The notes: generated from the letters alone by a model not told the origin. Counted from the stretch's first letter, positions 2,615 through 19,764 are shown. The stretch: 22,862 nucleotides of DNA from Planctomycetota bacterium (GCA_036479435.1 JAZGFI010000075.1:1-22862); one strand, 5' to 3'. Made by a program: numbers and translations.

Positions 2615-4596
2615 AACAGCGTCAGTTCTTAGACGTCGTCACGGACGAAGAGGCGCAGCGCCGCATCGCCGAAGTCTTCCAAGGCATGGTGCCCTGCGGT
2701 GAGATGCTGCCCCTCAACGAGTGCTTGGGCCGCGTCTTATTTGAGGACGTAAGCGCCGCGGTCGATGTCCCGGGTTTTGATCGCGCGGACATGGACGGAT
2801 TTGCCCTGCATGCGGTCGACACTTTCGGAGCCGAAGAACTCGCACCGAAGCGCTTGAAGGTTTCGCGCCATCAGATCGCCGCCGGCTCGGCGGATCTGCC
2901 CGCCGACTTCTCCTTAGAACCGGGTGCAGCGATTTCAATCGCAACTGGTGGCACTTTGCCCCGCGGGGCGAACGCCGTCTTGATGATTGAAGACTCCGCG
3001 CCGGTGGTTGACGGTGACAATAGCGGTGACGAGATCGACGTATTTCATCCGGTCGCCCCCGGAGCGAATCTTACGGGGGCCGGCACTGACGTCGGTCGCG
3101 GCGAGATGATCTTGCGTGCGGGCCAAATCCTTGGGTCTCGTGAGACAGCCCTAGCGGCAGCGGTTGGTGCGCATGAGCTGTGTGCTTTTGCCGCGCCTAA
3201 AGTTGCGATCATCTCGACGGGCGATGAATTGCGCCGCCCCGGAGAAGACTTGGGGCCCGGTGAAATCTACGACTCCAATGGCCGCATCCTCGCCGACGCG
3301 GTACGCGAGATGGGCGGCGAAGCCTGTGAACTCGGCATCGTGCCCGATGACGAGAAGAAGCTCAGCGCTTGTCTAAGGGAAGCCCTCCGAGACTCAGACT
3401 TAATCTTGATGTCGGGTGGGACGTCGAAAGGCGCTGGCGACCTCAACTATCGTGTCGTGCGTGCCTTGGCCCAAGAGCTGCCAAACTCGCGAGGCATTGT
3501 CGTTCACGGCGTCGCCTTAAAGCCCGGCAAGCCTCTTTGTGTCGCCGAAGTCGCCGGCCGTCCGCTGGTGATCTTGCCGGGTTTCCCAACCTCGGCGATC
3601 TTCACTTTCCATGAGTTCGTCTCCTCGCACCTTCGATTTGCCGCTGGCCGCCGCGAGCATTCGGCGGAGTACGTCGAAGCCTACGCGCCGCTGCGCCTGC
3701 CCAGCGCGAAAGGGCGAACGGAGTACATGCTGGTCGATCTCGTGCCCGGCGATCAAGGCTTGGCGGCCTATCCTTTGGGCCGCGGTTCCGGCAGTGTCAG
3801 CACTTTTTCGGCGGCCGATGGTTTCATTCGCATTGATCGTCACACTGAGTTCGTAGCGGAAGGCGAGCGCCTTTTGGTGCGACCCTTGGGCGATCAAGTC
3901 CGGCGACCCGACCTCGTCGCCATCGGTAGTCATTGCCTCGGATTGGACTATTTGTTGAGCGTCTTAAGTCGGCGTGGTTACAGCGTGAAGGCCATCAACG
4001 TTGGGTCTCAGGGCGGACTGAACGCGCTCGCGCGCGGCGAAGGCGACCTCGCAGGAACCCACCTTCTGGATGCGACAACCGGGGAGTACAACCGCTCTTT
4101 TCTTCCCGAGAACACCGAGATCCTAGGAGGATGGCGGCGGCGACAAGGTTTGGTATTTCGCCGCGGCGACGCTCGATTTGAAAGTCTCGCCGCCGACCTA
4201 AGCCGACTCGCCGACCTGGTGCGCGAACCCGGCGTGGTGATGGTGAACCGCAATCCGGGCAGTGGCACTCGCGTGTTGATTGATCGTTTTCTTAGCGCGG
4301 GCGCTGAAACTAAAAGCCCGCCCGAGGGCTTTCACGCCCTAGCCCGCAGCCACCACGCCGTGGCTGCCGCCGTGGTCCAAGGTCGGGCAGACTGGGGCAT
4401 AACGCTCCAATCCTTGGCTCAAGAGCAAGGCCTCGAATTCGTCTTTGTGCAAGACGAGATCTTCGAACTCGCCTTTCCCGCGTCGAGGGCCCAGCGCCCA
4501 GCTATCCTGGCGCTGCGCAAGATCTTGGCCGAATCCGAAGTTCAAGCAAAACTAAAAAACCTGCTATACGGAGTCAGACTAAATTCTCCCGCTTAA
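2611..4596 (+). CDS. moeA: MoeA fused to C-terminal PBP (periplasmic-binding-protein-like) domain
   Basis: GTGA overlap with the upstream gene. MoeA motifs DRADMDGFA, STGDEL, SGGTSKG, HGVALKPGKP, LPGFPTSA. PBP motifs GSHCLGLD, VGSQGGL, GTHLLD, NRNPGSGTR. Paired moeA genes are typical of tungsten-AOR loci. Confidence 0.93.
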   Translation: MKQRQFLDVVTDEEAQRRIAEVFQGMVPCGEMLPLNECLGRVLFEDVSAAVDVPGFDRADMDGFALHAVDTFGAEELAPKRLKVSRHQIAAGSADLPADFSLEPGAAISIATGGTLPRGANAVLMIEDSAPVVDGDNSGDEIDVFHPVAPGANLTGAGTDVGRGEMILRAGQILGSRETALAAAVGAHELCAFAAPKVAIISTGDELRRPGEDLGPGEIYDSNGRILADAVREMGGEACELGIVPDDEKKLSACLREALRDSDLILMSGGTSKGAGDLNYRVVRALAQELPNSRGIVVHGVALKPGKPLCVAEVAGRPLVILPGFPTSAIFTFHEFVSSHLRFAAGRREHSAEYVEAYAPLRLPSAKGRTEYMLVDLVPGDQGLAAYPLGRGSGSVSTFSAADGFIRIDRHTEFVAEGERLLVRPLGDQVRRPDLVAIGSHCLGLDYLLSVLSRRGYSVKAINVGSQGGLNALARGEGDLAGTHLLDATTGEYNRSFLPENTEILGGWRRRQGLVFRRGDARFESLAADLSRLADLVREPGVVMVNRNPGSGTRVLIDRFLSAGAETKSPPEGFHALARSHHAVAAAVVQGRADWGITLQSLAQEQGLEFVFVQDEIFELAFPASRAQRPAILALRKILAESEVQAKLKNLLYGVRLNSPA

Positions 4597-6504: not shown

Positions 6505-9102
6505 TCAGTGTTTCTTCAGGACTTGTCTTCGGCGCTTGAAGTCGGCGGCCTCAATCTTGTGCACCACATCGCTAATCCCGTCCTTGGCCTCGACCTTGAT
6601 CTCGAAGGAATCGATCGGAGTCACCCGCCTGGAGTCCGAAGACATCGAGTGAGAAGTTTGCTGCAGGTAACTAAAGCGCAAGAGGTAGCGACCGGCTTCT
6701 GGGAATGATAACTCGGCGGCCCCTTTCTCGTCGAGGACGGCCCTCACTTCGGCTGGTTTCGATTCTGCGCCGCCGAGGAAGGCCGAAAGCGTGATGAAGA
6801 GCGGAGCCTGGGGCCAGTGCTTCGGACCCTTGATCTGAAGGTGGACGCGACAAGGCGGGGCGAGCTTGATGGTCCCCGAGCGCAGCGGACCCGGTTTTCG
6901 GTAGGCCCCTCGCTCATCTGCAGAAACGAAGAGGTCGCTAAGGGGAGAAGCTGCGACCAAGGTCATGACGCCCTTGGCATCGGAGTCCGGAAAGTACCGG
7001 CTCTTTCCCATCTCGGTCGCCTGTACTGTTGCGCCTTCGACAGCGCGGCCTGTGGAATCCACAATCTTGAGCCGGGCCGTCCAGATCCTTGCGCCCAGGG
7101 CTACACGCTGGAGCCGCGAGTCCGTCGATTCTCCCTTGGCGTCAATCTCAATGTCGCTGATCTCAAGAATCGGGGGACTTTTCGATCCCCGATGCTGAAT
7201 GCGAATCGTCGCCAGCCCTGGCCGCAAGCCCGACCAGGCCACGCGGTGTGGGTTCGTCCATTGCCCTCTTTTTTCGGAGTGTGGACCGGCGTCAAAAGGG
7301 TCCCAGGCGGCAGGCACTCCCAGCATCAAGATTTCGATCGCCTTCGGGCCGGGGACTCTTCCGACGAAAGTCATGGCGATCCGGCCTCCCCGCGGCATCG
7401 TCAATCGCAATCCCTCAGTTCCCGGCGCAAGCTCTTCGCTGACGAGCGCGGGGAATCCGGGACGTTCAAAAAAAAGGCGAAAGGGCTCATCGACTACTTG
7501 GCTCAAGAGGCGAAACCTACCCTGTTCGTCAACGCGGGCGGCGATGTCGCTTAGGTCTTCGACGCTTCTTGCTTGACCGAGCGCGACGCGAAGCGTGACG
7601 TTCTGAAGGGCTTGACCCGCATCGTCGACGACCAGTCCTGCCGCTAAGACCGGAAGCTCCTGAAGGACCAAGTCACCGAGGTCGACGCGCGCCGGGAAGG
7701 TGTCGTGCTGCGGCAAAAGGGCCTCCGTACCCCCGCGATGCCCACCGGCGAACCCGGTTTCGATACGCAACGTGGACTGCGCCGCCCGAAGGAGACTGTC
7801 CTCGCAGCCGATTCGGATGAATCCAACAGCATCCGTGCTGCGTATCCCAAGGTCGTGATGGACATCGTGGTTTTTGCCGCCGAGGCCTCGCAAGAGCAAA
7901 TCAGTATGGGCCATGGGCTCGCCCTTGGTATTGAGCACCCGGGCCGTCAGTGTCGATAGCGCTGCACCCAGTTCAAGCTGGTGACGGACCTTGCCTCCAC
8001 TATTCACGGGGCCGTCCAAAACGACGCTGTGGTGTTCACAGCTCTTGTCGGTGGGTCCAACGCATACCACAAATCTCAAGCCCAACGGCAGGTCATCAAA
8101 GCGCACTTCGCGTTGGGGGGTAATGCGCATCCAGGTTGGCCCGTACTCGCTGTTATCTGCAGCAAGAGCGCGCAAAGTAAGAACGACGGTTTTGTCCTTG
8201 GTGTTTTCGGGACCAACCCAACTCAAGATCATGGATGCTCCGCGCGGAAGGCGATGCACGGGAACGGCGTCTTCTGGACGAAGTGGTCGCGCGGTGATCG
8301 GCTGCGGACTGTAGCCCGGGAGCACAATCGAAAATCGTGCATGTGATGACGCGTAGCCGTAGTCCGGTTCGAAGAACCACGCCACTCCATCCTGGTCAGT
8401 TCGCGAGACCATGCGGTCGTAGAATACTCGGGGGTTTAGGTTCGTGGATTGCAGCGTGACGTCCAAACCCTCGCGAGGCTTGCCATCGGCACCTGCAATC
8501 TTGAGCGCATACTGCCGCGACTTGAGCAGTTCGTACTCGACAACCTGTCCAGCATCGTCGTTGAAATAGACCTGTTGCGGGGGCAAATACCCTTCATGCG
8601 CTGTCGCCGCGACTTGGCCTTTGCGCCAAAACCGCGGCAAGGGGCAGTAGCCACGTTCATCCGTCTCGAAGACATCGCCGTACTGAGTGGCCAGGATCAG
8701 AAAGTGGTCGGCCGTGGTCGCTTGATGGTCAAGCGCTTCGCGCGCGGCGCCCGCGTAGGGCAAAAAAGCCACGACCGCTCCGGCGACCCCGCGCTGCCCG
8801 GTGGGATCGAGAATCCTCAATATCGGCCCCCCACGATCCTGAACGACATCAATCCAATCGTCGGGGAACAGCCGCGCGCTGCGGGCGGACTCGAGTTGTC
8901 TGGCACTGAGAGTTCGAGTGCGCCGATGGCCTCGCTCCCCGCTGCGGTCTCGGGGCTTTTCGAATTCATGTTGGTTTTTCGTCTTGGGCGCTAGCCGGTT
9001 TGACGATTCGCTTTCATCATCCGCAGTGATCCACCCAAATAGCCCCAGGCCCCAAAAGGCCAAGCCAATGATGAGCGCGGTGATGAAATGGCGTGCCTGC
9101 AT
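6505..9102 (-). CDS. Membrane-anchored exported protein with repeated carboxypeptidase-regulatory-like beta-sandwich domains; function unknown
   Basis: 865-aa ORF with an N-terminal hydrophobic segment. Recurring G-x-V-x-D-x-x-G-x-P/A...T-D-x-x-G patterns (ARVLNTKGEPM, AGLVVDDAGQAL, KIVDSTGRAVEGATV, TDQDG, TDERG). Confidence 0.75.
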   Translation of the reverse strand: MQARHFITALIIGLAFWGLGLFGWITADDESESSNRLAPKTKNQHEFEKPRDRSGERGHRRTRTLSARQLESARSARLFPDDWIDVVQDRGGPILRILDPTGQRGVAGAVVAFLPYAGAAREALDHQATTADHFLILATQYGDVFETDERGYCPLPRFWRKGQVAATAHEGYLPPQQVYFNDDAGQVVEYELLKSRQYALKIAGADGKPREGLDVTLQSTNLNPRVFYDRMVSRTDQDGVAWFFEPDYGYASSHARFSIVLPGYSPQPITARPLRPEDAVPVHRLPRGASMILSWVGPENTKDKTVVLTLRALAADNSEYGPTWMRITPQREVRFDDLPLGLRFVVCVGPTDKSCEHHSVVLDGPVNSGGKVRHQLELGAALSTLTARVLNTKGEPMAHTDLLLRGLGGKNHDVHHDLGIRSTDAVGFIRIGCEDSLLRAAQSTLRIETGFAGGHRGGTEALLPQHDTFPARVDLGDLVLQELPVLAAGLVVDDAGQALQNVTLRVALGQARSVEDLSDIAARVDEQGRFRLLSQVVDEPFRLFFERPGFPALVSEELAPGTEGLRLTMPRGGRIAMTFVGRVPGPKAIEILMLGVPAAWDPFDAGPHSEKRGQWTNPHRVAWSGLRPGLATIRIQHRGSKSPPILEISDIEIDAKGESTDSRLQRVALGARIWTARLKIVDSTGRAVEGATVQATEMGKSRYFPDSDAKGVMTLVAASPLSDLFVSADERGAYRKPGPLRSGTIKLAPPCRVHLQIKGPKHWPQAPLFITLSAFLGGAESKPAEVRAVLDEKGAAELSFPEAGRYLLRFSYLQQTSHSMSSDSRRVTPIDSFEIKVEAKDGISDVVHKIEAADFKRRRQVLKKH

Positions 9103-9213
9103 GCCGATGGGCTGTCCTGACCGTTGAAGGATTGAATCGTCATCCTACCCGACGCAAAAAAGAGTGCGAAACCGTCTCTGGTTTCGCACTCCTCGTTTGG
9201 GCCAGAAAGGTGG

Positions 9214-10323
9214 CTATCCGATGGCGGCGATCATGACCTCGAGTCGGGCTTTGATCGGGAGTCCCGCGGTCTTTTCCAGCAGGGCTTCGAGCTTCTTTTT
9301 CTGCGCCGCCAGTTTCTTCTTGTTCATACGGGCGCAAACATTGCAACCAGCTTGCTTGTGATCGTGCCCTAGGCGCTTGCAGTTCTTGCAGGGCTTCATC
9401 TTGTCGAGATGTTTTTGCACCTTGTCGAGCTTCTTTTCGATCTCGAGGGCGGCTTTGAAGTCATCGGAGCCCTTGAGTTCGACGAGCTTTTCGGTGACGG
9501 CAGGTCCCAGAGTGGTCCTGGATAGTTCCTTTTCGAGTGACTTCAGCTCTCGTTGGGCTCGCGACGGGTGTTGGCCCATGGCGTTGTCAATGTCCGCCAG
9601 TCGGCGGTCACGCCAGGACTCGACGGCATTCAACAGACGGTCTAAATCGCTGCGCAGCTCATCCGAAGTCCTTTCGTCGGCGAGTTTCTTCTCGATGGTC
9701 TTAAGGGTCGCGTTGAGTTTCTTGGGGCTGGCGATTTGGGCCGCCAGCTTGGGCGCGGCCTCAAACTTTTCTTTCCCGAGGTCGATCGAACGTGCGCGAT
9801 CGAGGAGCTTGTCGACCCATTCGATGAACTTGAGCCCGTCACCCTCGTGGTAGTCACCACACATGTGGTGGTGAGCGATCTTGCCGCGGTGGTCAAAAAC
9901 TATGTAGTAGGGAACGTAGCCGCTGCCCTTCACTTTTGGGTGACGGCCTTGTGATGTCACCGTGAAATTCGGGGTTTTGGCGGTAACTCCTTTGGACTTG
10001 ATGTAGGAAACGACTTCGGACTTGGGGTTGCTCTGGCAATGGGATGCCAGCAAATGAAAAGGACGTCCTTCGAGTCTCTTGGCCAAACTGACCAAGTGCG
10101 GGGTGATCGCGTGGCAACCCACTCAGCTTCCCCAGATCTCCATCAACACGACCTTGCCGACCAAGTCGCGCTTGTCGATTTGTTTGCCGTACCAATACTC
10201 ACCCAAGCTGATGTCGTTGATTGACTCGCCAATCGCGGGATCGTTCTGAGCCCAGGTCGATGGCAGGGTTGACCCAAGGGTCAGCGCGCTCGCCAATAAA
10301 AGTGCGAGAGGGGAAAAACGCAT
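9214..10323 (-). CDS. Putative selenoprotein (369 aa with UGA read as Sec): signal peptide, TlpA/thioredoxin-fold domain with UxxC, coiled coil, CxxC..CxxC tail
   Basis: ORFs 10123..10323 and 9214..10122 abut in frame across one TGA (10123-10125), giving DLVGKVVLMEIWGS-U-VGCHAITPHLVSLAKRLEGRPFHLL. This matches the TlpA pattern GKVVLxxFW..CxxC...PHL. GAGG RBS lies before ATG 10323. Confidence 0.82.
10078..10096 (-). promoter_or_regulatory. Candidate bacterial SECIS hairpin for UGA 10123-10125
   Basis: CTTGGTCA-GTT-TGGCCAAG, an 8-bp stem with one G-U pair. The loop starts with GU, 34 nt after the UGA. Confidence 0.4.
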
Positions 10324-10434
10324 GTTCGATTTCCTCGTGCTTTGAATTCGAAAAATCAGGGCCGGGGCTTCCAGGTTATCTGGAGTTTTGGCCTCGGTCC
10401 ATGATGAGGTCTGGAAAGACGTCCCTGGGCGAGA

Positions 10435-11118
10435 TTAGTTCAGCGAAGAATCTTCGAGTTTTCCGTCTCGGAGCTCGAGCCGGCGGGGGGCGCGAGCGGC
10501 CAGCGTTGGGTCGTGCGTCACCACAATAAGCGTGCGGCCCTGCTGGGGCAGCTCAGCGAGGAATTCGGAGACCAATTCAGCTTGCTCGGGGTCGAGATTC
10601 CCGGTCGGTTCATCGGCGAGGACGATTTCGGGGTCGTTGGCGAGGACGCGAGCCAAGGCGACGCGCTGCCGTTGGCCGACACTCAGCTCAGACGGTTTGT
10701 GATTGCCGCGGTCGGCGAGACCGACTTTGGCGAGGAGTTCTTCGGCCCGCGCCCGTTGGCGTTCGTTGGACCATCCCTTAAGCCACAACGGCAGTTGGAT
10801 GTTTTCAAGCGCGCTCAAATAGGGCAGGAGGTGAAAGGATTGGAAGACGAAGCCGACTTTTTCTTGTCTGTACGCCGCTCTTCGCGCGGCGGACTCCGCA
10901 TAGAGATCCTGGTCATCGACGACAACCTTGCCACTCGTGGGCGCCAGCATGCCGCCAAGTAACAGCAGCAGCGTGCTCTTGCCGCTACCGCTGGCACCGA
11001 CAATGGCGAGGTGATCGCCCGCGGCGATCTTAAGGTCACATGGTTTAAGAGCTTCGACGACGTCGCCCCGGCGGCAGCGAAAAGTCATGGCCGTAGCTTC
11101 CAATCGTAGTTCGCTCAT
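10435..11118 (-). CDS. ABC transporter ATP-binding protein, LolD/MacB-type
   Basis: GASGSGKS Walker A, GFVFQSFHL Q-loop, LSVGQRQRVALAR signature, LADEPTGNLD, VTHD. ATGA overlap with the permease. Confidence 0.96.
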   Translation of the reverse strand: MSELRLEATAMTFRCRRGDVVEALKPCDLKIAAGDHLAIVGASGSGKSTLLLLLGGMLAPTSGKVVVDDQDLYAESAARRAAYRQEKVGFVFQSFHLLPYLSALENIQLPLWLKGWSNERQRARAEELLAKVGLADRGNHKPSELSVGQRQRVALARVLANDPEIVLADEPTGNLDPEQAELVSEFLAELPQQGRTLIVVTHDPTLAARAPRRLELRDGKLEDSSLN

Positions 11119-12329
11119 TCGTCGCGTAGGGCCCTGGCGGGGTCAAGATGTAGAGCGCGCCAAATCGGCCAAAGACTGGCGAGAGCAGTGATGCCGACCG
11201 CGAGGAGCAGGGCGAGCGGCAACAAATCCCAGCGCAGCGGCACCATGACTTGGGCGAGGCGTGGCCCCAAAGCGGCGGCCAAGCCGACGCCGAGCAGCCA
11301 ACCTAGCAAGCCGCCGCTCAAGGCAATCAGAAGGGCCTTGGCCATGAACAACTTGGCAAAGAGCGACGCCGGGGCGCCGAGTGCTGACAACATGCCGAGT
11401 TCGCGACGGCGTTCGCGCAAGTTTGAGAGCATCGTCGCCAAGATGCCGGCACCGCCGAGCAATAAAGCGAGGCCCGACAACAGCCAGGACAAACCCTGCA
11501 TGGTGCGGTTGGTTTCGATCTGAGTCTCGACGATCTGCAAGACGGTCACGACGCGGGTTTCGGGGAGGAGTTTCTCCAGGCCTTCACCGAGACCTTTTGC
11601 GATTTCTCGACAACAGCCGACAATCTCAATTGCATTGATGACTTCGCCCGCGCCCGCGATTTCTTGCACGGTGTGCAAGTGCGCGAAGACTCGGGAGTCA
11701 TCGACGGTGCCGGTGACGGGGAGGATTTCGAGCACTTTGAACTGCCGCCCACCCAGCTCGATCTCGGATTCAGCCTTCCAGCCGTAACGCTGGCTAAGGT
11801 CGGCCCCGACCAAGACCTCGTCGGCGGCAAGGGTGTCGATGATGCGCCTGCGGACGGCGGTTTCTGGGAGCTTGGCGGGCACTGTTTCGCTGTCAGGGCC
11901 GCAGCCTTCCGGTGGGCGGGCAAAGACACCTGCCCCCTTCCAGGTGGCTTTCGCGGCAAATTCGCGTTGAGGCAAGATGCCGGTGAGGGTGACCTTCGCG
12001 TCGCCAAAGGCCACCGGGATGGAGAGTTTGGGCGAGACGTTGTCGAGACCCTTTAGGTCTGAGAGCGCAATTCTTGCGACGTAGGATTCGGGCATGACCG
12101 AACCACCGAGGTCGGCGGAGTAATAATCATCGACGGCGGTGCCGGGTGGTAAGACCAAGATGTTGGCGCCGAGGCCGTCGAGCTTGCGCGCGACGTCCGC
12201 TTCCGAGGCCTGCATCACCGAGCGCACGGTCACCACAAGCGCGACCCCTAATCCCACGGCCATCAAGGCGGTGAGAAAGGGGGATTTGCGTTCGCTGATT
12301 TCGCGGGTCACGAGCGTCGTGAGGCGCAT
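11115..12329 (-). CDS. ABC transporter permease, MacB/FtsX (LolC/E-like) family
   Basis: N-terminal TM, LGANILVLP, large periplasmic domain, ERRRELGMLSALGA, three C-terminal TMs, LDPARALR. Contains GCG and GCC cysteine motifs. Confidence 0.93.
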   Translation of the reverse strand: MRLTTLVTREISERKSPFLTALMAVGLGVALVVTVRSVMQASEADVARKLDGLGANILVLPPGTAVDDYYSADLGGSVMPESYVARIALSDLKGLDNVSPKLSIPVAFGDAKVTLTGILPQREFAAKATWKGAGVFARPPEGCGPDSETVPAKLPETAVRRRIIDTLAADEVLVGADLSQRYGWKAESEIELGGRQFKVLEILPVTGTVDDSRVFAHLHTVQEIAGAGEVINAIEIVGCCREIAKGLGEGLEKLLPETRVVTVLQIVETQIETNRTMQGLSWLLSGLALLLGGAGILATMLSNLRERRRELGMLSALGAPASLFAKLFMAKALLIALSGGLLGWLLGVGLAAALGPRLAQVMVPLRWDLLPLALLLAVGITALASLWPIWRALHLDPARALRDE

Positions 12330-12359
12330 GCGATGATCTTCTCGATGTGGGTGCTGAAG

Positions 12360-12398
12360 TCTCCCGGTACCCGGGAGAGTCGGACTATTTACAGTCCG
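12360..12398 (-). promoter_or_regulatory. Two tandem hairpins after the TGA-TGA; candidate SECIS element(s)
   Basis: Minus strand: CGGACT-GTAAAT-AGTCCG (12381-12398) and TCTCCCGG-GTA-CCGGGAGA (12360-12378). Both loops start GUA and neither has a U-tract, so they are not terminator-like. Confidence 0.45.
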
Positions 12399-13287
12399 GG
12401 ATCGCTCATCAGGGTGCGGCGTATTTGGCGGTGATCGCCAAGAGTAAGTCTTTAGTCACCTTGCCGGTAAGGCGCCCGAGTTCAGTGCCAGGAGGGGCGA
12501 GGACGAGGGCGGTTGGACAGGGAAGTGCGATGAGGGTTCCCTGGGCTAAGGCGACGTCAAAGTCTGGGCCAAATCGAAACTGCTCAAAGAAATCAGACCC
12601 TTTGGCCTGTTCCGCGCCAATGTTGACTCGAGCCAAGTTCGCGGAAGCCTCGGCATCCGCGAAGAGGGCCTCGATTCCCGTGACGTTTTCCATCGGATCA
12701 TGGGCGTAGCTTGCGAGCGCTCGCATGTCGACGATGACCAGCTTGCCCGCCTGAAAAGCCTCGAGGACTTTCGCGTGGGCCGGGCCGATAAAGGCCGTGT
12801 CCAACTCGTCGAGATCAAAGTCACCATCTTCATCGGCGAGAATCGTCTTCGTGATGGCGCCACTCGGCGCGATGACCATCACCACCGGCATGGGCATGCG
12901 CGCGAGATCCAACTTGCGGATTACAGGGGCTTGTCCCGACAAAGTCAGATCCACGGCCTGAAACTCGGCCTTGTGTTTGGGGTCGGCGGCCACTTCGCGC
13001 AAGGATTCCAACAAGTCGGCATCGAGGGTCTCGGCGTCTTGGTGGAAAAGTCCGACGAAGAACTTTTTCTTCGCGTGGGTCGCCTGCATGAGCTCCATGC
13101 CGTTCTCTCGATCTTCACTGCCCTTAGCCACTGGAGTCTCGACCGCGGAGGCGGTCGGCGGGGCTTTGGCAACTTTTTGTGGCGATGATGGGCTGCACCC
13201 CGCCAGGGTCGCGAAGACCAAAGTCGCAAAGATGATGCCGAGCGCTGGCGCTTGCTGCCAGCGTCTTGAAGGGGCTGCGTCGTTCAT
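12385..13287 (-). CDS. Lipoprotein with two thioredoxin-like folds, partner of the ABC exporter; probable C-terminal tandem Sec-Sec (300 aa with readthrough, 292 aa if stopped at 12409)
   Basis: Lipobox LAGC and two similar halves (VVMVIAPSGAI / ALVLAPPGTEL). The 3' end reads GCC GCA CCC TGA TGA GCG ATC CCG GAC TGT AAA TAG = AAP-U-U-AIPDCK-stop. The CDS itself is secure; the readthrough is inferred. Confidence 0.75.
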
Positions 13288-13371
13288 ACCTTCACCATCG
13301 GCAATTCGGGGGCTGACGACAAGTTTCGGGTGGATTCCGCACGAATTCCTGGGCCATGACCTCTTGCTGTC

Positions 13372-13950
13372 TTAGAGCGAAAGGCTCGGAACGTCCCAGG
13401 TCTCGGGCAGGCAAATGGGAGAGGCGATGACGACACTAATATCGGGCAAGGCGTCAAGAGCGGCCCTAAGGGCCTCGGCGCGGGCCTCATCGAGGTCGGC
13501 CAGGGGCTCGTCCAAGAGCAGTAGTTCCGGTCGCAACACCAATGCCCTAGCCAGGGCGACGCGCCGGATCTCGCCGCCGCTCAGGGTGCGCGACGAGCGC
13601 CTCAACAGATCTTTCAGCTCAAAGCGTTCGACGGCTTCGTCAATTCGCGGCTGACTCTCATTCGCTCGGATGCCGTGAGCCTTCAAACCGTAGCTGAGAT
13701 TGCTGCGCACATCGCCGCGAAACAAAAAGGGGCTTTGGTGAACAAAAACGCGCGCCTTTTGGTGCGCTTCAATCTTGACTTGACCTTGGGAGGGCACATC
13801 GAGTCCCGCCATCACGCGAAGCAGGGTCGACTTCCCCGAGCCGTTTTGGCCACGGATCAAAAAACGCTGGCCCCGCGCCAAAACAAAAGAGTCGAGTTTG
13901 AGAATCTCGTGGCCGTTGCGAGTCAGGCGAAGGCCGGTAATCTCAATCAT
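13372..13950 (-). CDS. tupC: Tungstate ABC transporter ATP-binding subunit
   Basis: True start is probably ATG 13950 (MIEITG, ATGA overlap with tupB) rather than 14157. Motifs GQNGSGKS, VHQSPFLF, LSGGE, LLLDEP. Follows tupA and tupB. Confidence 0.88.
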   Translation of the reverse strand: MIEITGLRLTRNGHEILKLDSFVLARGQRFLIRGQNGSGKSTLLRVMAGLDVPSQGQVKIEAHQKARVFVHQSPFLFRGDVRSNLSYGLKAHGIRANESQPRIDEAVERFELKDLLRRSSRTLSGGEIRRVALARALVLRPELLLLDEPLADLDEARAEALRAALDALPDISVVIASPICLPETWDVPSLSL

Positions 13951-14648
13951 GATTTCGCCTCCCGGTCGCGCTCGAAGGAAAGCAAAACCAAGATGCTGGT
14001 GACGCCGAGGGAAAGCAGCAGCAACAAAAAGCCCATGGCTAGTCCGCGGCTGTACTCGCCGCGGCTTGACTCTAGGACAATCGAACCCGCCAAGGTACGC
14101 GTACGGCCCGCGATGTTGCCGCCGACCATCACCGCCACGCCGAGTTCCGTCATGCAACGCGCCAGCGCGGTCAAGACGCCGAGCAGAATGCCCGTGCGGG
14201 CTTCCGACAAAAGTGTGAGGGCGTGGCGCAACTTCCCCGCCCCCAAAGTGCGCGCGGTTTCTGAGGCGCGGGGATCCAAAGCGGACACCGCCCCTTGGGT
14301 CAGCGAAAAAGTGATCGGAAGGGCGAGCAAGAACTCGCCCAAGATGATCGCCCAGGGGGTGTAGATCAGCTCCAACCCACCCAAGACTCCGCCGCGAGCA
14401 AAAAAGGAATAGCCGAGGATTCCGATAAAGGCGGTGGGGAAGGCCATGCCGGTCCGACCGAGCAAGATCAAAAGGCGGCGACCGACGAAGCGTTTGGTGG
14501 CGACAAATGTCCCCAGCGGAATACCGACCATCGCGGCCAAAAAGACCGCCGACCCGGAAACGAATAGGGTGCGGCCCGCGGCGTTCATGACCACGGGATC
14601 TTGATCGATGAGAAGCCGGAAAGCCTCGCGAATGCCGTCTGCGAACAT
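13947..14648 (-). CDS. tupB: Tungstate ABC transporter permease
   Basis: Hydrophobic protein with ETARTLGA EAA-loop and the TupB-type ELGVAVMVGGNIAGRTRTL motif. Confidence 0.92.
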   Translation of the reverse strand: MFADGIREAFRLLIDQDPVVMNAAGRTLFVSGSAVFLAAMVGIPLGTFVATKRFVGRRLLILLGRTGMAFPTAFIGILGYSFFARGGVLGGLELIYTPWAIILGEFLLALPITFSLTQGAVSALDPRASETARTLGAGKLRHALTLLSEARTGILLGVLTALARCMTELGVAVMVGGNIAGRTRTLAGSIVLESSRGEYSRGLAMGFLLLLLSLGVTSILVLLSFERDREAKS

Positions 14649-15497
14649 CTATCCGGCCTTCGGCGTCAAGGTCTTAAAGACGCGCACGCCGCCGACTTCG
14701 TAGTTGCGGATGATGTCTTGAGCCTCGGGGCCGATAAGGAACTCGGCAAATTTCTCCGCGAGCTTCACTCCTGCGGCGGGGCGACGATCCGGATTCACGC
14801 GAATGACCGAATAGGGATTGATCAGATTGGCACCGCCGGACACCAACTCAACGAGATCGAGGCGGTTTGCCACCCGGGCGAAGGTGCCGCGGTCGATGAG
14901 CAAGTAACACCTCAGTTCGTGCGCCATTTCCGCGGTGGCCCCCATGCCTCGGCCCGATTCGATGTACTCCGACCAAGGGCTGTAACCATCGACGAGCTTC
15001 CAAAGCTGCGCTTCGCGTTTGTGGGTACCACTGTCGTCGCCACGGCTGATAAAACGCGCACCTTGTTGGCAAATGCGGCGCAGGGCGTCCGCGACCTTCA
15101 TGCCTTTGACGCCCGCCGGGTCGTTCTTCGGACCGGCGATGAGGAAATCGCTTTGCATGACGGCCCGGCGCCCAAGGCCATGCCCGGCCGCCACAAAGGC
15201 TTCTTCGGCTTCGCGAGAGTGAGCGAAAACCGCATCAACGTCGCCGTTAGCGCCGAGCTTCAAGGCAGCCCCGGTGCCCACCGCGAGGACGATCACTTCG
15301 CAGGACTCACTTTTTTCAAAGAGGGGGATGAGTTGGTCGGCGATCCCGGAGTCACGCATCGAGGTGGTGATGGCGATGCGCAGGATCTTGTCATCGGCCC
15401 CGTCCTGGCAGCCCCAAAGGCAGCTCAGAACGAGGCCGACAGCGGCAGCAAAGCCTAAATGCCGGATTTCAAAAGCATCTCGTCGAAGGACTTGCAT
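14649..15497 (-). CDS. tupA: Tungstate-binding lipoprotein of ABC transporter
   Basis: Lipobox LWGC; ITTSMRDSG (TTTS-like), AVGTGAAL, FISRGDDSGTHKRE, GRGMGAT, DRGT, NPYSVI. The start overlaps the aor 3' end by 43 nt and is uncertain. Confidence 0.92.
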   Translation of the reverse strand: MQVLRRDAFEIRHLGFAAAVGLVLSCLWGCQDGADDKILRIAITTSMRDSGIADQLIPLFEKSESCEVIVLAVGTGAALKLGANGDVDAVFAHSREAEEAFVAAGHGLGRRAVMQSDFLIAGPKNDPAGVKGMKVADALRRICQQGARFISRGDDSGTHKREAQLWKLVDGYSPWSEYIESGRGMGATAEMAHELRCYLLIDRGTFARVANRLDLVELVSGGANLINPYSVIRVNPDRRPAAGVKLAEKFAEFLIGPEAQDIIRNYEVGGVRVFKTLTPKAG

Positions 15498-18019
15498 ACC
15501 CGTGAGTGCACCTCTTCGAAGAACTCGACCGTGTTGAAGTGTTCAAGATCAACTTTGTCGTACTTGCGGTGAACTTCAAGGGGCATCCGGTAGTCCTCGG
15601 GGCTAAAGCCCTGAGTCCTTTCCAGTTTAAGACCGCGGAGGAAGCAGCGCTTGACCGTCTCGGTGAGCTGCTCTTCGCTGATCTCAAGGCCGGTCATGAG
15701 CTGGATGGCTTCCGCCATCTTCTCGTTGGGCAGGGCCGCAAACTTGCAGATGCCAATGACGTCGTCGCGCATGATCGAACAGCCGCGCTCAGTGATGGCT
15801 TCAACCCAGTAGTCGGCGCCCGCTTCTTTTTCGAAAACGTAGAGCAAATAGGTCTTCATCGACATGTGCCCGCCGGCCAAGGCCCAGGGATAGCCGGGGT
15901 TGAACTGCGGTAAGTAGGCGGGGAACTCGACGCCCTTGCAGTGCATGGCGTAACCGGTTTCACCGAGCGCTTCCGAAAGACGTTTCACGCCCTGGCCGAG
16001 CAACGGGAGTTTGCCCTTGGCCATTTCGGTGATAGCCCGTTGCGCGCCTTCGTAGTTGCCGTACTCGATGTAGTCCGGGATCAAAGACGGCTCGCCCGCC
16101 TCTTTTTTGCGCTTGTTGTACTCCATGGCGTAAGAGATCGTGACGCCGCAAGAGATGGAATCCATGCCGTAGTCGTCGACCATGTCCACCAAGTGAACGG
16201 CTTGATGGATGTCGAAAATCCCGATGTTCGAAGACATCAAGTTCAAGGGCTCAAAATCGAGCTTCGCGTGGAACTTGCCGGGCTTTACTTTGCCCTTGAC
16301 CTCTGTGCGGTCGTAGACGTTTTTGTGACAGGAAATGCCGCAGGCGTAGCAAGCTTCGTCTTTGACCATCAACTCGCCCGCCGCTTCGACGTTGGCGCGG
16401 TACATCGGCACAGAAACATCGGTGCCGGTGGGGTTGAAGTTGTTTTCAGGCATCGCGTGCAGCGGGTTCAAGGCCGTCATGTTGGCCCAAGTGCCGCCGC
16501 CGCCATCGCCTTTTTTTGCGTCGCGAAAGCGCTGGCTTCCGGGCCCGCGCGCGACTTCCATGTTGATCTCTTTGAGGCCCGCGACTTTGACGCCCGGCTT
16601 GGGGTCTTTCATGTCCGCCACGATGGCGAGCAAGTTTTTGGAACCCATCAAACCGCCCATGCCCCCGCGCCCCGCAAAGCGCGACTTCATGTCGCCACTT
16701 TTGAGCTGGTTGAGGGTAGAGAGGCCGATCGCCGCGAAGCGGACTTCTTCGTAGTTCTCGCCGGCGGTGCCAATCGCCGCGAAGTGAGCATCGGGATACT
16801 GGGTGTAGAGGTGTTGGATCTTTTGATTGATCGTCATTCCCTGCAAGTGATGCGCGGGCTTAAACTGGAACGTCGGTTGGCCGTTGGCTTCGTCGTGAGT
16901 GATGTGCAAGTAGACCGGCATGATGGCCTGGCCCGTGAAAATAACTTCCTCCACCCCGAGGTGCCGAAGCTTGGTGCCGAATTTGCCACTGCCGGTCGAC
17001 CACATCGCCGAGGGCTTGTCACTGAGGGAGGCCTTCAGCGGTGAGTAACCGTGGAAGTAGGTGCGTAGGCCGGTCATGAACTGAGTGCCCGACAAAATGC
17101 CGAGGTTCATGATGAGCGGCGCGGCTTTGTCGTAGGGATCTTCAACCTCGTAGTCTTCGAGAATCTTGAATCCGCGGCCGATGCCGCCCAAGACATCTTC
17201 GTAGTCGGCACACTCGACCGTGTCTCGCTTGACGAAATAGGTGCTGAGGTCGATCCGGTACTGTTTGATGCTGAATTCGCGGGGTGACTTGAGATCAGCC
17301 GCCGCGACCGGAGCGGGAGCGGATTTCTTGGCCGGTGCCGCTTCGGATTTCTTAGCAGGTGTGGCGGCGGGCTTTTTCGCCGGAGCTGCCCCCGGCTTAG
17401 CGGCCGGAGTCGTCTCCGGCTTGGCGGCTGGTTTCGCGGTCGCTTTGTTCGGGGCGGGCTTTTTAGGCTCCGGCTTTTTGACTTCAGGTGTTTTGTCGCT
17501 CGGCTTCTCGACGGCCGCCACCGGCTTTGCCGCCGTCGGGGTCTTTGACGTGCGCTTCGTGGTTTTTCGGTCCTCGGAGTCGCCTGTCGCCGTGGCTGGT
17601 TTCTCAGCGGGCTTCTTCTCCGGGTCCGGGGCCTTTTGCGAAATGATCGTCTTCGGCGGTTCTTCGACCGCTGTTGGCATTCGCTCGGCGCTGGTTTTGG
17701 CGACTTTCTTTTTGGCCACCTTCACGACGACTTCGATTTTGGTTCGACCCATCTTGATGACCAAACCGTTCTTCAATGGATGACGATTGCCTTTCCCGAG
17801 AACCGGGCCTCCGACGATGACCGTCTTGTTGGAGCTGCCGACGTCTTCGATTTCAAGGCCACCGCTTCCCTCCAAAATCACGGCGTGGCATCCGGAAACA
17901 TTCTGGTCATTAACGCAGAGTTGGTTGCTGGGGTCGCGCCCGATGGTGGTGCCAGCTTTGATGGCAACGTTGCGGGGGGCTTGATCGGGTTCGTGGAGGC
18001 GAAAGGTGTATTCAGACAT
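15455..18019 (-). CDS. aor: Tungsten-containing aldehyde:ferredoxin oxidoreductase family enzyme with N-terminal FHA domain and Lys/Pro/Ala-rich linker
   Basis: FHA: TIGRDPSNQL..VSGCHA..IEDVGSSNKT. AOR: AGRGGMGGLMGSKNLLAI, PENNF, CYACGISC, DDYGMDSIS (DxxGxD), KGVEFPAY, GGH, DDVIGICKF (fourth Fe-S Cys). Confidence 0.92.
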   Translation of the reverse strand: MSEYTFRLHEPDQAPRNVAIKAGTTIGRDPSNQLCVNDQNVSGCHAVILEGSGGLEIEDVGSSNKTVIVGGPVLGKGNRHPLKNGLVIKMGRTKIEVVVKVAKKKVAKTSAERMPTAVEEPPKTIISQKAPDPEKKPAEKPATATGDSEDRKTTKRTSKTPTAAKPVAAVEKPSDKTPEVKKPEPKKPAPNKATAKPAAKPETTPAAKPGAAPAKKPAATPAKKSEAAPAKKSAPAPVAAADLKSPREFSIKQYRIDLSTYFVKRDTVECADYEDVLGGIGRGFKILEDYEVEDPYDKAAPLIMNLGILSGTQFMTGLRTYFHGYSPLKASLSDKPSAMWSTGSGKFGTKLRHLGVEEVIFTGQAIMPVYLHITHDEANGQPTFQFKPAHHLQGMTINQKIQHLYTQYPDAHFAAIGTAGENYEEVRFAAIGLSTLNQLKSGDMKSRFAGRGGMGGLMGSKNLLAIVADMKDPKPGVKVAGLKEINMEVARGPGSQRFRDAKKGDGGGGTWANMTALNPLHAMPENNFNPTGTDVSVPMYRANVEAAGELMVKDEACYACGISCHKNVYDRTEVKGKVKPGKFHAKLDFEPLNLMSSNIGIFDIHQAVHLVDMVDDYGMDSISCGVTISYAMEYNKRKKEAGEPSLIPDYIEYGNYEGAQRAITEMAKGKLPLLGQGVKRLSEALGETGYAMHCKGVEFPAYLPQFNPGYPWALAGGHMSMKTYLLYVFEKEAGADYWVEAITERGCSIMRDDVIGICKFAALPNEKMAEAIQLMTGLEISEEQLTETVKRCFLRGLKLERTQGFSPEDYRMPLEVHRKYDKVDLEHFNTVEFFEEVHSRVCKSFDEMLLKSGI
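17290..17720 (-). repeat. Low-complexity PAKK/PAAK-type peptide repeats in the FHA-AOR linker (approximate bounds)
   Basis: KPAAKPETTPAAKPGAAPAKKPAATPAKKSEAAPAKKSAPAP. Confidence 0.85.
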
Positions 18020-18072
18020 CAAAAGTCTCTATCGCTCGGGGTGCGTGCCGGGTTGGATCTGAGGTTGAGGCG

Positions 18073-18114: not shown

Positions 18115-19764
18115 TCAAAGAGTGCAGGTAATGGAGCCGAGGCGAGCCGTCAGCTTCATGTTTTCGCTGTAGTCGATCGGGATCGAGATGATCGCCGGCC
18201 CCTCTTGCTGGAAGGCCTCTTCGAGGGCGGGCAGCAGGTCTTTGGATTTGGTGACATGCTTGCCCCAAGCGCCAAAGCTCTCCGCCAACTTCACGAAGTC
18301 GGGGTTGGTGAAAGCCAGGTCGGAGTGCTTGCCAAAGCTCGCCTGCTGCTTCCATTTGATCAGGCCGTACTCGCAGTCTTCCCAGATCAGCTGGACGATG
18401 TTGAGTTTGCGGCGCACCGCGGTCTCAAGGTCTTGGATGTTCATCATCGTACCGGCATCACCACCCACAGCGAGGATGCGGCGATCGGGAAAGACCAACT
18501 TCGCGCCCATTGCGCCTGGGAAGGCGAAACCCATCGTGCAAAAGCCGTTCGAGATCAGGCAAGTGTTGGGCTCGTCGCACTGGTAGTAGCGGCCGATCCA
18601 CATCTTGTGGGCTCCGACGTCGCTCAAAATGATGTCGTTTGGTCCCAAGACCTGACGGCAATCCCAGAGTGCTTTTTGGGGAGTGATCAAGCCGTCGGTG
18701 TCGGCGTCGGCATGTTCGGCGAAGTCGGCGAGCATTTCCTTGCGCAACTTGGCGTGCACGTTGATGTCGAACAGGGGCTTGTCGGGCATACCCTTGTTGA
18801 GTTCGTAGATCGAATCCGCGATGTCGGCGACCAATTCGACATCCGGGTGATAGAGGCTCTCCACTTCGGACTCTTCGAAGTCAATGTGGATGATCTTCTT
18901 GTCGCGCCCGGTGTTCCAAAACTGCGGGTGGTACTCGACGAGGTCGTAGCCAATGGCAATAACCAAGTCGGCTTTTTCCATTTCGCAAGAAACAAGGTCG
19001 CGAGCCTGTAGGCCCATCGTGAATAAACAGTGCTTGTCATCTCGCGCAATCGCGCCCTTGCCCATGAAGGTGCTGACGACACCGATACCAGATTTCTCGG
19101 CGAAGATCCGAAGCTGCTTTGTGGAGCGCTTGCGAATCGAGCCGTTGCCCGCGAGGATCAAAGGGTGCTTGGCATTTTTGATCAGCTCGAGCGCTTGCTT
19201 GACCGCTTTGTGGTCGGCGCCGGGGCGGCGAACCTTGCGCGGCTCCATCGGGACCAAGTCATCCTTCACTTGCGAGTCGGCAAGGTCTTCGGGAAGCTCG
19301 ATGTGCGTGGCCCCCGGTTTTTCGGCGGTAGCGACTTTGAAAGCCTTGCGCACCACTTCCGGAATGTTCTCCGGTTGGCGAACACTGAAGTTCCACTTGG
19401 TGATCGGCCGGAACATCTCAATGCAGTCCATGTTCTGATGCGATTCCTTGTGCAGTCGATGGGTGTCGGCTTGTCCGGTGAGGACGACCATGGGCGCGCG
19501 GTCCATGTTGCCGTCGGCAACGCCCGTCACCAAGTTGGTGGCGCCTGGCCCGAGTGTCGCCAAGCAAACGCCGGGCTTGCCCGTCAAACGCCCGTAGACG
19601 TCGGCCATAAACGCGGCGGCTTGTTCGTGGCGGCAGAGAACGAAGTCGATGTCCGATTCCATCAAGGAAATCATCACATCGGCGTTCTCTTCACCCGGGA
19701 TGCCAAAGATGTACTCGACCCCTTCGGTCTCTAAGCACTTAACGAACAGATCTGATGCCTTCAT
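18115..19764 (-). CDS. ThDP-dependent enzyme, acetolactate-synthase-large-subunit-like; resembles the cyanobacterial 2-oxoglutarate decarboxylase subfamily
   Basis: FGIPGEEN, RHEQAAAFMADVYGRLTGK, TLGPGATN, ESHQ, TFMGKG, SDVGAHKMW, NTCLISNGF, ThDP motif GDAG..., DYSEN. GAGAGG RBS. No ALS small-subunit gene is adjacent. Confidence 0.92.
   Translation of the reverse strand: MKASDLFVKCLETEGVEYIFGIPGEENADVMISLMESDIDFVLCRHEQAAAFMADVYGRLTGKPGVCLATLGPGATNLVTGVADGNMDRAPMVVLTGQADTHRLHKESHQNMDCIEMFRPITKWNFSVRQPENIPEVVRKAFKVATAEKPGATHIELPEDLADSQVKDDLVPMEPRKVRRPGADHKAVKQALELIKNAKHPLILAGNGSIRKRSTKQLRIFAEKSGIGVVSTFMGKGAIARDDKHCLFTMGLQARDLVSCEMEKADLVIAIGYDLVEYHPQFWNTGRDKKIIHIDFEESEVESLYHPDVELVADIADSIYELNKGMPDKPLFDINVHAKLRKEMLADFAEHADADTDGLITPQKALWDCRQVLGPNDIILSDVGAHKMWIGRYYQCDEPNTCLISNGFCTMGFAFPGAMGAKLVFPDRRILAVGGDAGTMMNIQDLETAVRRKLNIVQLIWEDCEYGLIKWKQQASFGKHSDLAFTNPDFVKLAESFGAWGKHVTKSKDLLPALEEAFQQEGPAIISIPIDYSENMKLTARLGSITCTL

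Follow-up and report, generated by a model that had tools for sequence, protein, structure and literature searches.

Type VII ATP-binding cassette (ABC) systems such as MacB, LolCDE and FtsEX combine a four-helix FtsX-type permease carrying a MacB-like periplasmic domain with a LolD-like ATPase and a partner protein encoded alongside. In the ArsD-ArsA pair, as described in PMC12415280, a thioredoxin-like carrier (ArsD) binds As(III) via Cys12, Cys13 and Cys18, in a CC-x4-C pattern, and passes it to an ATP-driven partner (ArsA), which takes it up at a three-Cys site. The predicted selenocysteine-assisted organometallic (SAO) locus (Haft and Gwadz 2022, bioRxiv 10.1101/2022.07.06.499078) comprises an ABC transporter flanked by selenoproteins, among them SaoC, a signal-peptide protein or lipoprotein ending in CC or CU (U, selenocysteine), and SaoT, which is thioredoxin-like and of UxxC type; the authors take its recurring CC and CU motifs for ligands of heavy metals, and its hosts are anaerobes that use Stickland metabolism. 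Here we describe a locus with likenesses to all three, found on a stretch of 22,862 nucleotides from a Planctomycetota bacterium (GCA_036479435.1 JAZGFI010000075.1:1-22862; the whole of this stretch is referred to as the window). On its minus strand, at 9214..13287, a gene for a lipoprotein with a metal-ligand-like C-terminal tail (the tail protein) is followed by genes for a MacB/FtsX-type permease, a LolD-like ATPase and a redoxin-like protein with a UxxC motif (Table 1). The tail-protein gene contains a tandem TGA-TGA that probably encodes two adjacent selenocysteine (Sec) residues, and the first three genes of the locus are a predicted envelope module that recurs in other bacteria.

When this module is set beside the described systems, it shares all of the above elements of a type VII ABC system and differs in having three conserved periplasmic Cys residues and a partner with a predicted double thioredoxin fold and a Cys/Sec tail; it also scores far below the LolC/E, LolD and MacB equivalog cut-offs. 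The likeness to ArsD-ArsA lies in the thioredoxin-like carrier, its CC-x4-C site and the three-Cys, ATP-driven partner, and module relatives are found within ars operons, where arsD and arsA are frequent neighbours. The ArsD-ArsA transfer is cytoplasmic, however, whereas the tail of the module is predicted to be periplasmic and its ATPase is of ABC type, and the motif lies in a C-terminal tail rather than at the N-terminus as in ArsD. The tail protein matches neither of the ArsD models PF06953 and NF033727, and only the CC-x4-C spacing is shared. SAO is the nearest published analogue, although SaoP is a MetI-like importer permease rather than an FtsX/MacB protein and SAO has CU, never UU; no Sao NCBIfam model (SaoA/B/C/P/T/X) matched the four window proteins at E 0.01 or better. 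A full-text literature search found no description of a Cys-bearing MacB-type module, and the statement in a first-pass annotation of this DNA that no characterised system has this composition holds for the literature searched, with SAO and ArsD-ArsA as close analogues.

Tandem UGA codons as candidate adjacent selenocysteines

Translation of the tail-protein gene runs in sense codons up to the TGA-TGA and resumes beyond it for six residues before a TAG stop. When both UGA codons are read as Sec, the C-terminus becomes ...KYAAP-U293-U294-AIPD-C299-K300. In an alignment of 27 Cys-form homologues (alignment A3), the columns under the two TGA codons hold Cys in 20/27 and 27/27 rows, respectively, the second being column 294, and the run past the TGA pair, which is only six residues long, also matches the family, with Cys in 20/27 rows at C299 and Lys in 15/27 at K300. 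Reading through AIPDCK to the stop thus restores the family ending CC-x4-C-K. We estimate that random sequence would offer a second TGA, then four sense codons, Cys, Lys and a stop, with a probability of ~1e-6. The gene calls of the three closest homologues, P0006-P0008 (31-48% identity), all end at the Pro preceding the TGA-TGA site and look like truncated Sec genes. Contigs from 4 runs (3 studies) carry the 501-base stretch around TGA-TGA without a single difference; this DNA may itself come from two of those runs. No RNA data set was found among the sequencing runs listed.

The genome to which the window belongs (92% complete) encodes selB (323 bits), selA (526 bits) and a tRNA-Sec adjoining selA (67 bits), all above their cut-offs, and the organism is predicted to be able to make selenoproteins. 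Among metagenome relatives of the module, four tails (L109, L159, L166 and L158) have just 2 Cys together with an in-frame TGA at the third-ligand position, and in the first three of these the TGA is followed at 16-35 nt by a G-C hairpin of 6-7 bp whose loop contains a G. Such tails are candidate single-Sec forms of the tail-protein family, and would mean that Sec substitution in this tail recurs. We infer Sec insertion at both UGA codons of the window gene and consider it likely that TGA-TGA there is read as Sec-Sec; the window copy appears to swap the adjacent Cys-Cys of the family for adjacent Sec-Sec. The first-pass annotation had taken the TGA sites of both the tail gene and the UxxC gene for Sec, which is the best reading of each.

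Two hairpins, both candidate selenocysteine insertion sequence (SECIS) elements, follow the TGA pair. The stem of hairpin 1 begins 10 nt past the first UGA and 7 nt past the second, covering the last codons and the stop, and the 67-nt fold after the UGAs has a z of -2.3. Hairpin 2 places its loop G at 41 nt from the first UGA and 38 nt from the second, and its design matches the SECIS of the neighbouring UxxC gene (8 bp, loop GUU, 37 nt); in a genome-wide null, 483/174166 TGA triplets (0.28%) have a hairpin of at least 7 bp with a GU-starting loop 34-44 nt downstream. Several points weigh against reading both codons as Sec. Neither hairpin is canonical: the 4-nt loop of hairpin 1 has no G unless its closing G-U pair opens, and hairpin 2 stands at 38/41 nt compared with 22-37 nt in ten other candidate Sec genes of the genome, which were picked by our own motif filter; the spacings of the tail-gene hairpins lie at the edges of the range in those genes. 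The Sec status of P0006-P0008 is deduced from gene-caller stops, in protein sequences only. Adjacent Sec-Sec occurs in none of the 119 prokaryotic selenoprotein families in Table 1 of a 2026 catalogue (PMC13188914), where the nearest motifs are UxxU, UxxxxU and CU, and a literature search for adjacent or consecutive bacterial UGA codons or Sec residues found none. In E. coli a single UGA is recoded at only 30-40% (PMC4513850), and the expected yield of a double event is therefore low.

The absence of a textbook SECIS and of a catalogued Sec-Sec pair, together with gene callers ending P0005-P0008 at this site, would also suit an ordinary double stop, in a clade that has lost the Cys tail, with a protein that ends at Pro292 and with AIPDCK and the hairpins as relics or unrelated sequence. 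A protein truncated in this way would lose the one nearly invariant feature of its family, the Cys at column 294 (27/27), and the agreement of the read-through run with C299 and K300 would be left to the random odds estimated above. Other tails likewise replace the third Cys by TGA plus a hairpin, and the Sec machinery is present in the genome. We therefore regard a double stop as unlikely, and retain the Sec-Sec reading in what follows.

Predicted fold of the tail protein and cysteines of the permease

The tail protein has no Pfam or NCBIfam match. Its AlphaFold model has a mean predicted local distance difference test score (pLDDT) of 80.9, with core blocks at 91-97 and a low-confidence tail, and is made up of two beta-alpha-beta thioredoxin-like halves, both lacking CxxC. 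The top Foldseek matches are the two-domain thioredoxin proteins QSOX, PDI bb' and PfPDO (E 4e-6 to 5e-4), and a profile search of PDB sequences gave thioredoxin matches that were weak only. The protein is accordingly modelled as a tandem double thioredoxin fold with a flexible C-terminal tail. Across 93 distinct tails (last 32 residues), exactly 3 Cys are found in 64, at least 4 in 14 and 2 in 12, and the ligand patterns of tails other than that of the window are CC-x4-C or C-x4-C-x4-C. Inspection by eye places a lipobox in the window protein (LAGC) and in P0006 and P0007, while most homologues have a plain signal peptide and no lipobox. The signal region of the window protein (13200-13287, minus strand) reads ...PSRRWQQAPALGIIF...LAGC and has, also by eye, an RR pair ahead of the lipobox, in loose resemblance to a twin-arginine motif.

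Directly upstream of the tail-protein gene, many planctomycete loci encode Cys/His-rich proteins of ~150-220 aa with one N-terminal hydrophobic segment (L053:9083-9532, L056:9266-9784, L060:9112-9594, L067:2324-2785, L054:8956-9618, L062:4168-4746, L057:4461-4928, L059:4367-4849 and L064:4238-4711). These small proteins have no Pfam match, and may be a fourth module component in those planctomycete clades.

The permease scores 63.4 bits against PF02687 FtsX (cut-off 25.5) and 35.8 bits against PF12704 MacB_PCD (cut-off 27), and by both of these predicted domains it is a type VII ABC protein of the MacB/FtsX family. It has only three Cys residues, all of them periplasmic: C143 in the motif EGCGP (11903-11901) and C239-C240 in IVGCCRE (TGT-TGT, 11615-11610). 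Both motifs had been pointed out in the first-pass annotation and are exact as given there, and the Cys pair, on whose conservation it had made its proposal depend, is kept throughout 108 distinct relatives (C239 and C240 in 108/108 each), with C143 in 104/108 and exactly 3 periplasmic Cys in 73/108. More distant MacB-like relatives have a Cys pair at the same place as CGC, CxxCP or CxC.

The top-scoring families of both ABC proteins are Lol components, the permease reaching 43.9 bits against the LolC/E equivalog TIGR02212 (cut-off 362) and the ATPase 229 bits against its best NCBIfam model, LolD TIGR02211 (cut-off 308), both short of the LolCDE equivalog cut-offs. A membrane-fusion partner of the MacAB-TolC kind was looked for as an HlyD-family match among the 16 window open reading frames (ORFs) scanned and was not found, and the window has no outer-membrane gene. 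The Lol affinity, the thioredoxin folds of the partner and the lipoboxes of the window protein, P0006 and P0007 would be consistent with a system that has no metal cargo at all, either a Lol-like extractor of the tail lipoprotein or a disulfide/selenylsulfide redox relay at the Cys/Sec sites. We think this improbable: most homologues are without a lipobox, the thioredoxin domains are without CxxC, the LolC/E score is far below its cut-off, and the steady ars and metal neighbourhoods described below would be left unexplained.

Extent of the conserved module

A homologue of the tail lipoprotein is present in 28/401 same-phylum genomes and in none of the 22 other genomes of the window's class (1/23, the window's own). 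The permease adjoins it in 25/27 planctomycete loci with a lipoprotein match, at a permease identity of 39-51%, and the ATPase follows the permease wherever the locus reaches far enough. At least 480 relatives were confirmed in a metagenome scan with the permease alignment, and 80 loci were kept; a metagenome scan with the four-row lipoprotein alignment A1 gave 305 pattern matches, none of them confirmed. Scanning genome contigs with the permease alone returned one locus (L017), and a protein search with alignment A3 returned just 14 proteins, too few for tail-type counts. In the phylum of the Acidobacteriota match the module occurs in 1/301 genomes, the match's own, in two copies. In a set of 102 module loci (858 kb), every locus has the permease, 95 have the ATPase and 86 the lipoprotein, and homologues of TupA, TupB, AFOR and the UxxC protein were each found in 0/102. 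Lipoprotein, permease and ATPase are, on sequence evidence, a conserved three-gene envelope module of which the UxxC gene and the tup genes are not members. The gene order given in the first-pass annotation, with the UU-lipoprotein, permease, ATPase and UxxC protein downstream of tupABC, is correct for all four minus-strand genes, and its expectation that the four would co-occur is borne out for the first three and fails for the UxxC gene.

The UxxC gene encodes an exported TlpA/redoxin-like protein with the motif WGS-U67-VGC and a long (~200-residue) helical C-terminal extension. A hairpin 30-48 nt after its UGA forms a 7-pair consensus in 19 aligned homologues, with covariation at one pair (UA in 12, CG in 4, broken in 3). 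A protein search gave 94 matches, including the window's own ORF, nearly all of which start just past the TGA, with M-G-C for V-G-C, as would result from gene callers cutting Sec genes; in a six-frame search 217/401 same-phylum genomes match, and most matches have exactly one TGA. Conservation extends to either side of the TGA, as WGSU(V/I)GC, with CPPC, CGPC, UGPC or UPPC in distant homologues. Module ABC genes are found in 0/29 loci around UxxC homologues, and in the five genomes with both the UxxC gene and the module the two lie on different contigs. The UxxC gene is predicted to be a genuine selenoprotein gene, an ordinary member of a very large and separate planctomycete family and not a member of the module. 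It resembles the thioredoxin-fold UxxC selenoproteins listed in Table 1 of PMC13188914 (TlpA-like or thiol-disulfide isomerase-like, cd02966; Redoxin, PF08534) in being exported and in having UxxC and an in-ORF SECIS, and differs from those catalogued families as a planctomycete subfamily with the helical extension.

The C-terminal part of the UxxC protein (9214-9400, minus strand) holds an insert, KPCKNCK...GCNVCA (CxxC...CxxC), that is also found in P0160, P0164 and P0171 and is missing from other homologues. The same genome (G000) yielded further Sec gene candidates under a motif-plus-hairpin filter, on contigs C69, C96, C112, C141, C262, C271, C274, C62 and C201, including several W-U-x-x-C thioredoxin-like genes, one VPGU-type gene and two CxxU genes. 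Exported selenoproteins appear to be plentiful in this genome.

In the window itself the genes are closely packed, with gaps of 84 nt between tupC and the lipoprotein gene (unstructured), 55 nt between the lipoprotein and permease genes and 111 nt between the ATPase and UxxC genes. No terminator lies between them, so that one same-strand string runs from the FHA-AFOR gene through tupABC and the module to the UxxC gene, with a terminator only at its end. This arrangement would favour the proposal that redoxin, UU-lipoprotein, CC-permease and ATPase form a four-gene thiol/selenol relay serving tungsten-enzyme physiology, and a reductant partner is plausible in that thioredoxin (7 loci) and DsbD-type genes (10 loci) recur in ars-linked loci. 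Elsewhere the association dissolves: the 0/102 and 0/29 counts and the separate contigs in five genomes speak against it, as does the far wider spread of the UxxC family (217/401 genomes, compared with 28/401 for the module). We give a four-gene relay little credence, and the tungsten-enzyme link tentatively drawn in the first-pass annotation is not upheld, with TupA, TupB and AFOR in 0/102 module loci.

Gene neighbourhoods and the likely cargo

To describe the neighbourhoods of the three-gene module, 695 ORFs from 81 loci (the 80 metagenome loci and L100) were clustered, and one representative per recurrent cluster was scanned. The recurrent neighbours are ArsR/SmtB (31 loci), ACR3 (24), ArsC and ArsM (11 each), ArsA and a DsbD-type membrane protein (10 each), ArsD and ArsP (9 each) and thioredoxin (7). 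When ACR3, ArsC, ArsM, ArsA, ArsD, ArsP and ArsF are counted as core ars genes, 25 of the 37 metagenome loci of at least 6 kb have one or more, and 31 have a core gene or ArsR. Planctomycete loci contain CusA/CzcA-type RND pumps (5/21 wider loci), CDF transporters (L053, L055), P1B ATPases (L055, L058), His-rich and Cys-rich small proteins and, in L048 and L049, a MerB-thioredoxin fusion with a DsbD_2 protein. These neighbourhoods of ars and heavy-metal genes agree with the soft metal or metalloid cargo that was among the suggestions of the first-pass annotation, and As(III) or another thiol-loving metal is the most likely cargo of the module.

We consider it probable that 13287..10435 as a whole is a selenium-substituted copy of a conserved three-gene metalloid/soft-metal envelope module. 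The periplasmic tail protein, here lipid-anchored, would offer three chalcogen ligands, Sec293-Sec294-x4-Cys299, the two UGAs being decoded as adjacent Sec with the aid of one or both downstream hairpins. In the periplasm the tail would capture a thiol-loving trivalent metalloid, most likely As(III) or Sb(III), or else Hg, Cu(I) or Cd, and hold it in a three-coordinate site from which it could be exchanged with the permease triad C143, C239 and C240. ATP hydrolysis by the LolD-like ATPase in the cytoplasm would then move the periplasmic domain, by type VII mechanotransmission, and the cargo would be released or expelled; both the hand-off and its direction are what we infer. An Se2S site would have a lower pKa and a higher affinity than an S3 site, and the UxxC TlpA-like selenoprotein may keep the selenols reduced here.

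Other observations tell against this assignment. No type VII ABC system is known to have a metal substrate, and the ars labels rest on a single representative per BLAST cluster. In a FastTree phylogeny, the window permease and that of P0009 (61% identity) form their own clade, which branches from a polytomy rather than from within an ars-linked clade; the polytomy also holds the ars-linked clades and the heavy-metal-linked Pirellulales-type clade, which adjoins heavy-metal genes and not arsenic genes. There is no core ars gene among the 16 window ORFs scanned, ACR3 was not found in the 92%-complete genome, and an ArsC-like match in the genome stays below its cut-off. With no ars gene in the window and no ACR3 found in the genome, As(III) is a candidate cargo in the window's organism.

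The module and its Sec-Sec tail could be as described with a different cargo here, one of the soft metal ions Hg(II), Cu(I)/Ag(I), Cd(II) and Zn(II), and with Sec-Sec akin to the CC pairs of MerT and MerA. The RND pumps, CDF transporters, P1B ATPases, His/Cys-rich proteins and MerB-thioredoxin fusion of the planctomycete loci all point this way, as does the window tail itself, which is of the CC-x4-CK type common to those heavy-metal-linked clades, and the lack of an ars gene in the window and of ACR3 in the genome agrees with it. The window permease is nevertheless nearer to ars-linked relatives (47-54% identity) than to Pirellulales-type relatives (39-44%), and three-ligand sites in both partners would suit trigonal As(III) better than linear Hg(II). 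A soft metal ion is a real though minor possibility, and the metalloid form of the module, with As(III) or Sb(III) foremost, remains the one that we prefer.

Surroundings of the module in the window

The window is a tungsten/molybdenum cofactor island. Upstream of the tup genes lie an FHA-AFOR fusion and a thiamine pyrophosphate (TPP)-dependent enzyme (Pfam, NCBIfam). The fusion (15455-18022, minus strand; 855 aa), in which an N-terminal FHA domain (49.8 bits) is joined to a full AFOR (AFOR_N and AFOR_C), is unusual for a tungsten enzyme and sits between the TPP-dependent enzyme (18115-19764) and tupA. On the plus strand, 1079-4596 holds two tandem MoeA genes, the first with an N-terminal ThiS/MoaD-like domain and the second with a C-terminal PBP_like (oxyanion-binding) domain. 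A match to the molybdenum/tungsten cofactor (Moco/Wco) riboswitch between tupC and the lipoprotein gene (13271-13403, minus strand) scored 16.2 bits against a gathering score of 36 and was treated as chance.

The terminator that follows the UxxC gene folds at -39.4 kcal/mol (z -6.0), and 0/200 shuffles fold equally well. A sigma-70 promoter scan of the window found 0 sites, and the same scan omitted this strong terminator at 9153..9194. Just past it, 6505-9102 (minus strand) encodes an exported protein of 865 aa with CarboxypepD_reg and DUF4198-like stretches, both below the Pfam cut-offs, and a PPK2 gene comes next.

Table 1. Positions of the module, its candidate recoding elements and adjoining features (window coordinates unless a locus is named)
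Feature	Position	Strand	Details
Tail lipoprotein gene, sense part	13287..12412	-	by translation; then TGA 12411-12409, TGA 12408-12406, AIPDCK, TAG 12387-12385
Tail-protein gene, both TGA as Sec	12385..13287	-	300 aa, predicted
Tandem UGA-UGA, candidate Sec293-Sec294	12406..12411	-	by alignment with Cys columns
Hairpin 1, candidate SECIS	12381..12398	-	7 bp, loop UAAA closed by G-U pair
Hairpin 2, candidate SECIS	12360..12378	-	8 G-C-rich bp, loop GUA; in intergenic spacer, no U-run after
Permease	11115..12329	-	404 aa; Pfam FtsX and MacB_PCD
ABC ATPase, LolD/MacB-like	10435..11118	-	ABC_tran 119.6 bits; start overlaps permease stop by 4 nt
UxxC TlpA/redoxin-like gene	9214..10323	-	in-frame TGA 10125-10123, WGSUVGC
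SECIS hairpin of the UxxC gene	10078..10096	-	8 bp, loop GUU, 37 nt
tupA, tupB, tupC (tungstate ABC importer)	13372..15497	-	Pfam and NCBIfam; directly upstream of lipoprotein gene
Intrinsic terminator	9153..9194	-	15-bp stem then U6; end of the same-strand gene string, past the UxxC gene
TGA replacing one tail Cys in relatives	L109:688, L159:463, L166:2957, L158:7851, L132:5346		example ...CGSSCAPGGG-U-KR-stop

A further reading starts from this placement. The module could have been recruited into a tungsten operon (TPP enzyme, FHA-AFOR, tupABC, module, Sec-redoxin, terminator), with a Sec-Sec-Cys tail whose selenols either trap a thio- or seleno-metalate (thiotungstate, thiomolybdate) in the periplasm or serve for stripping arsenic or sulfide from the oxyanion pool, and so protecting or feeding tungsten-cofactor synthesis, with each UGA served by its own hairpin. 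We consider this a long shot; if it were true, it would provide the first example from nature, in bacteria, of SelB-dependent insertion at two codons back to back.

Implications

What is new here is the candidate Sec-Sec tail, the recurrence of candidate single-Sec tails in metagenome relatives and the placement of the module at the end of a tungsten operon. If both UGAs are Sec, the tail protein would show that a natural bacterial protein can have two selenocysteines side by side. A correctly spaced SECIS for each UGA is believed to be needed for Sec insertion in bacteria, and the tail gene would therefore be a ready-made test of SelB serving two neighbouring codons. The module is common in environmental bacteria, with its relatives in one metagenome scan lying mostly inside arsenic-resistance operons. 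Should the proposed role of the module be correct, it would constitute a periplasmic, ATP-driven branch of arsenic or soft-metal handling, and type VII ABC systems would gain their first role linked to metals.

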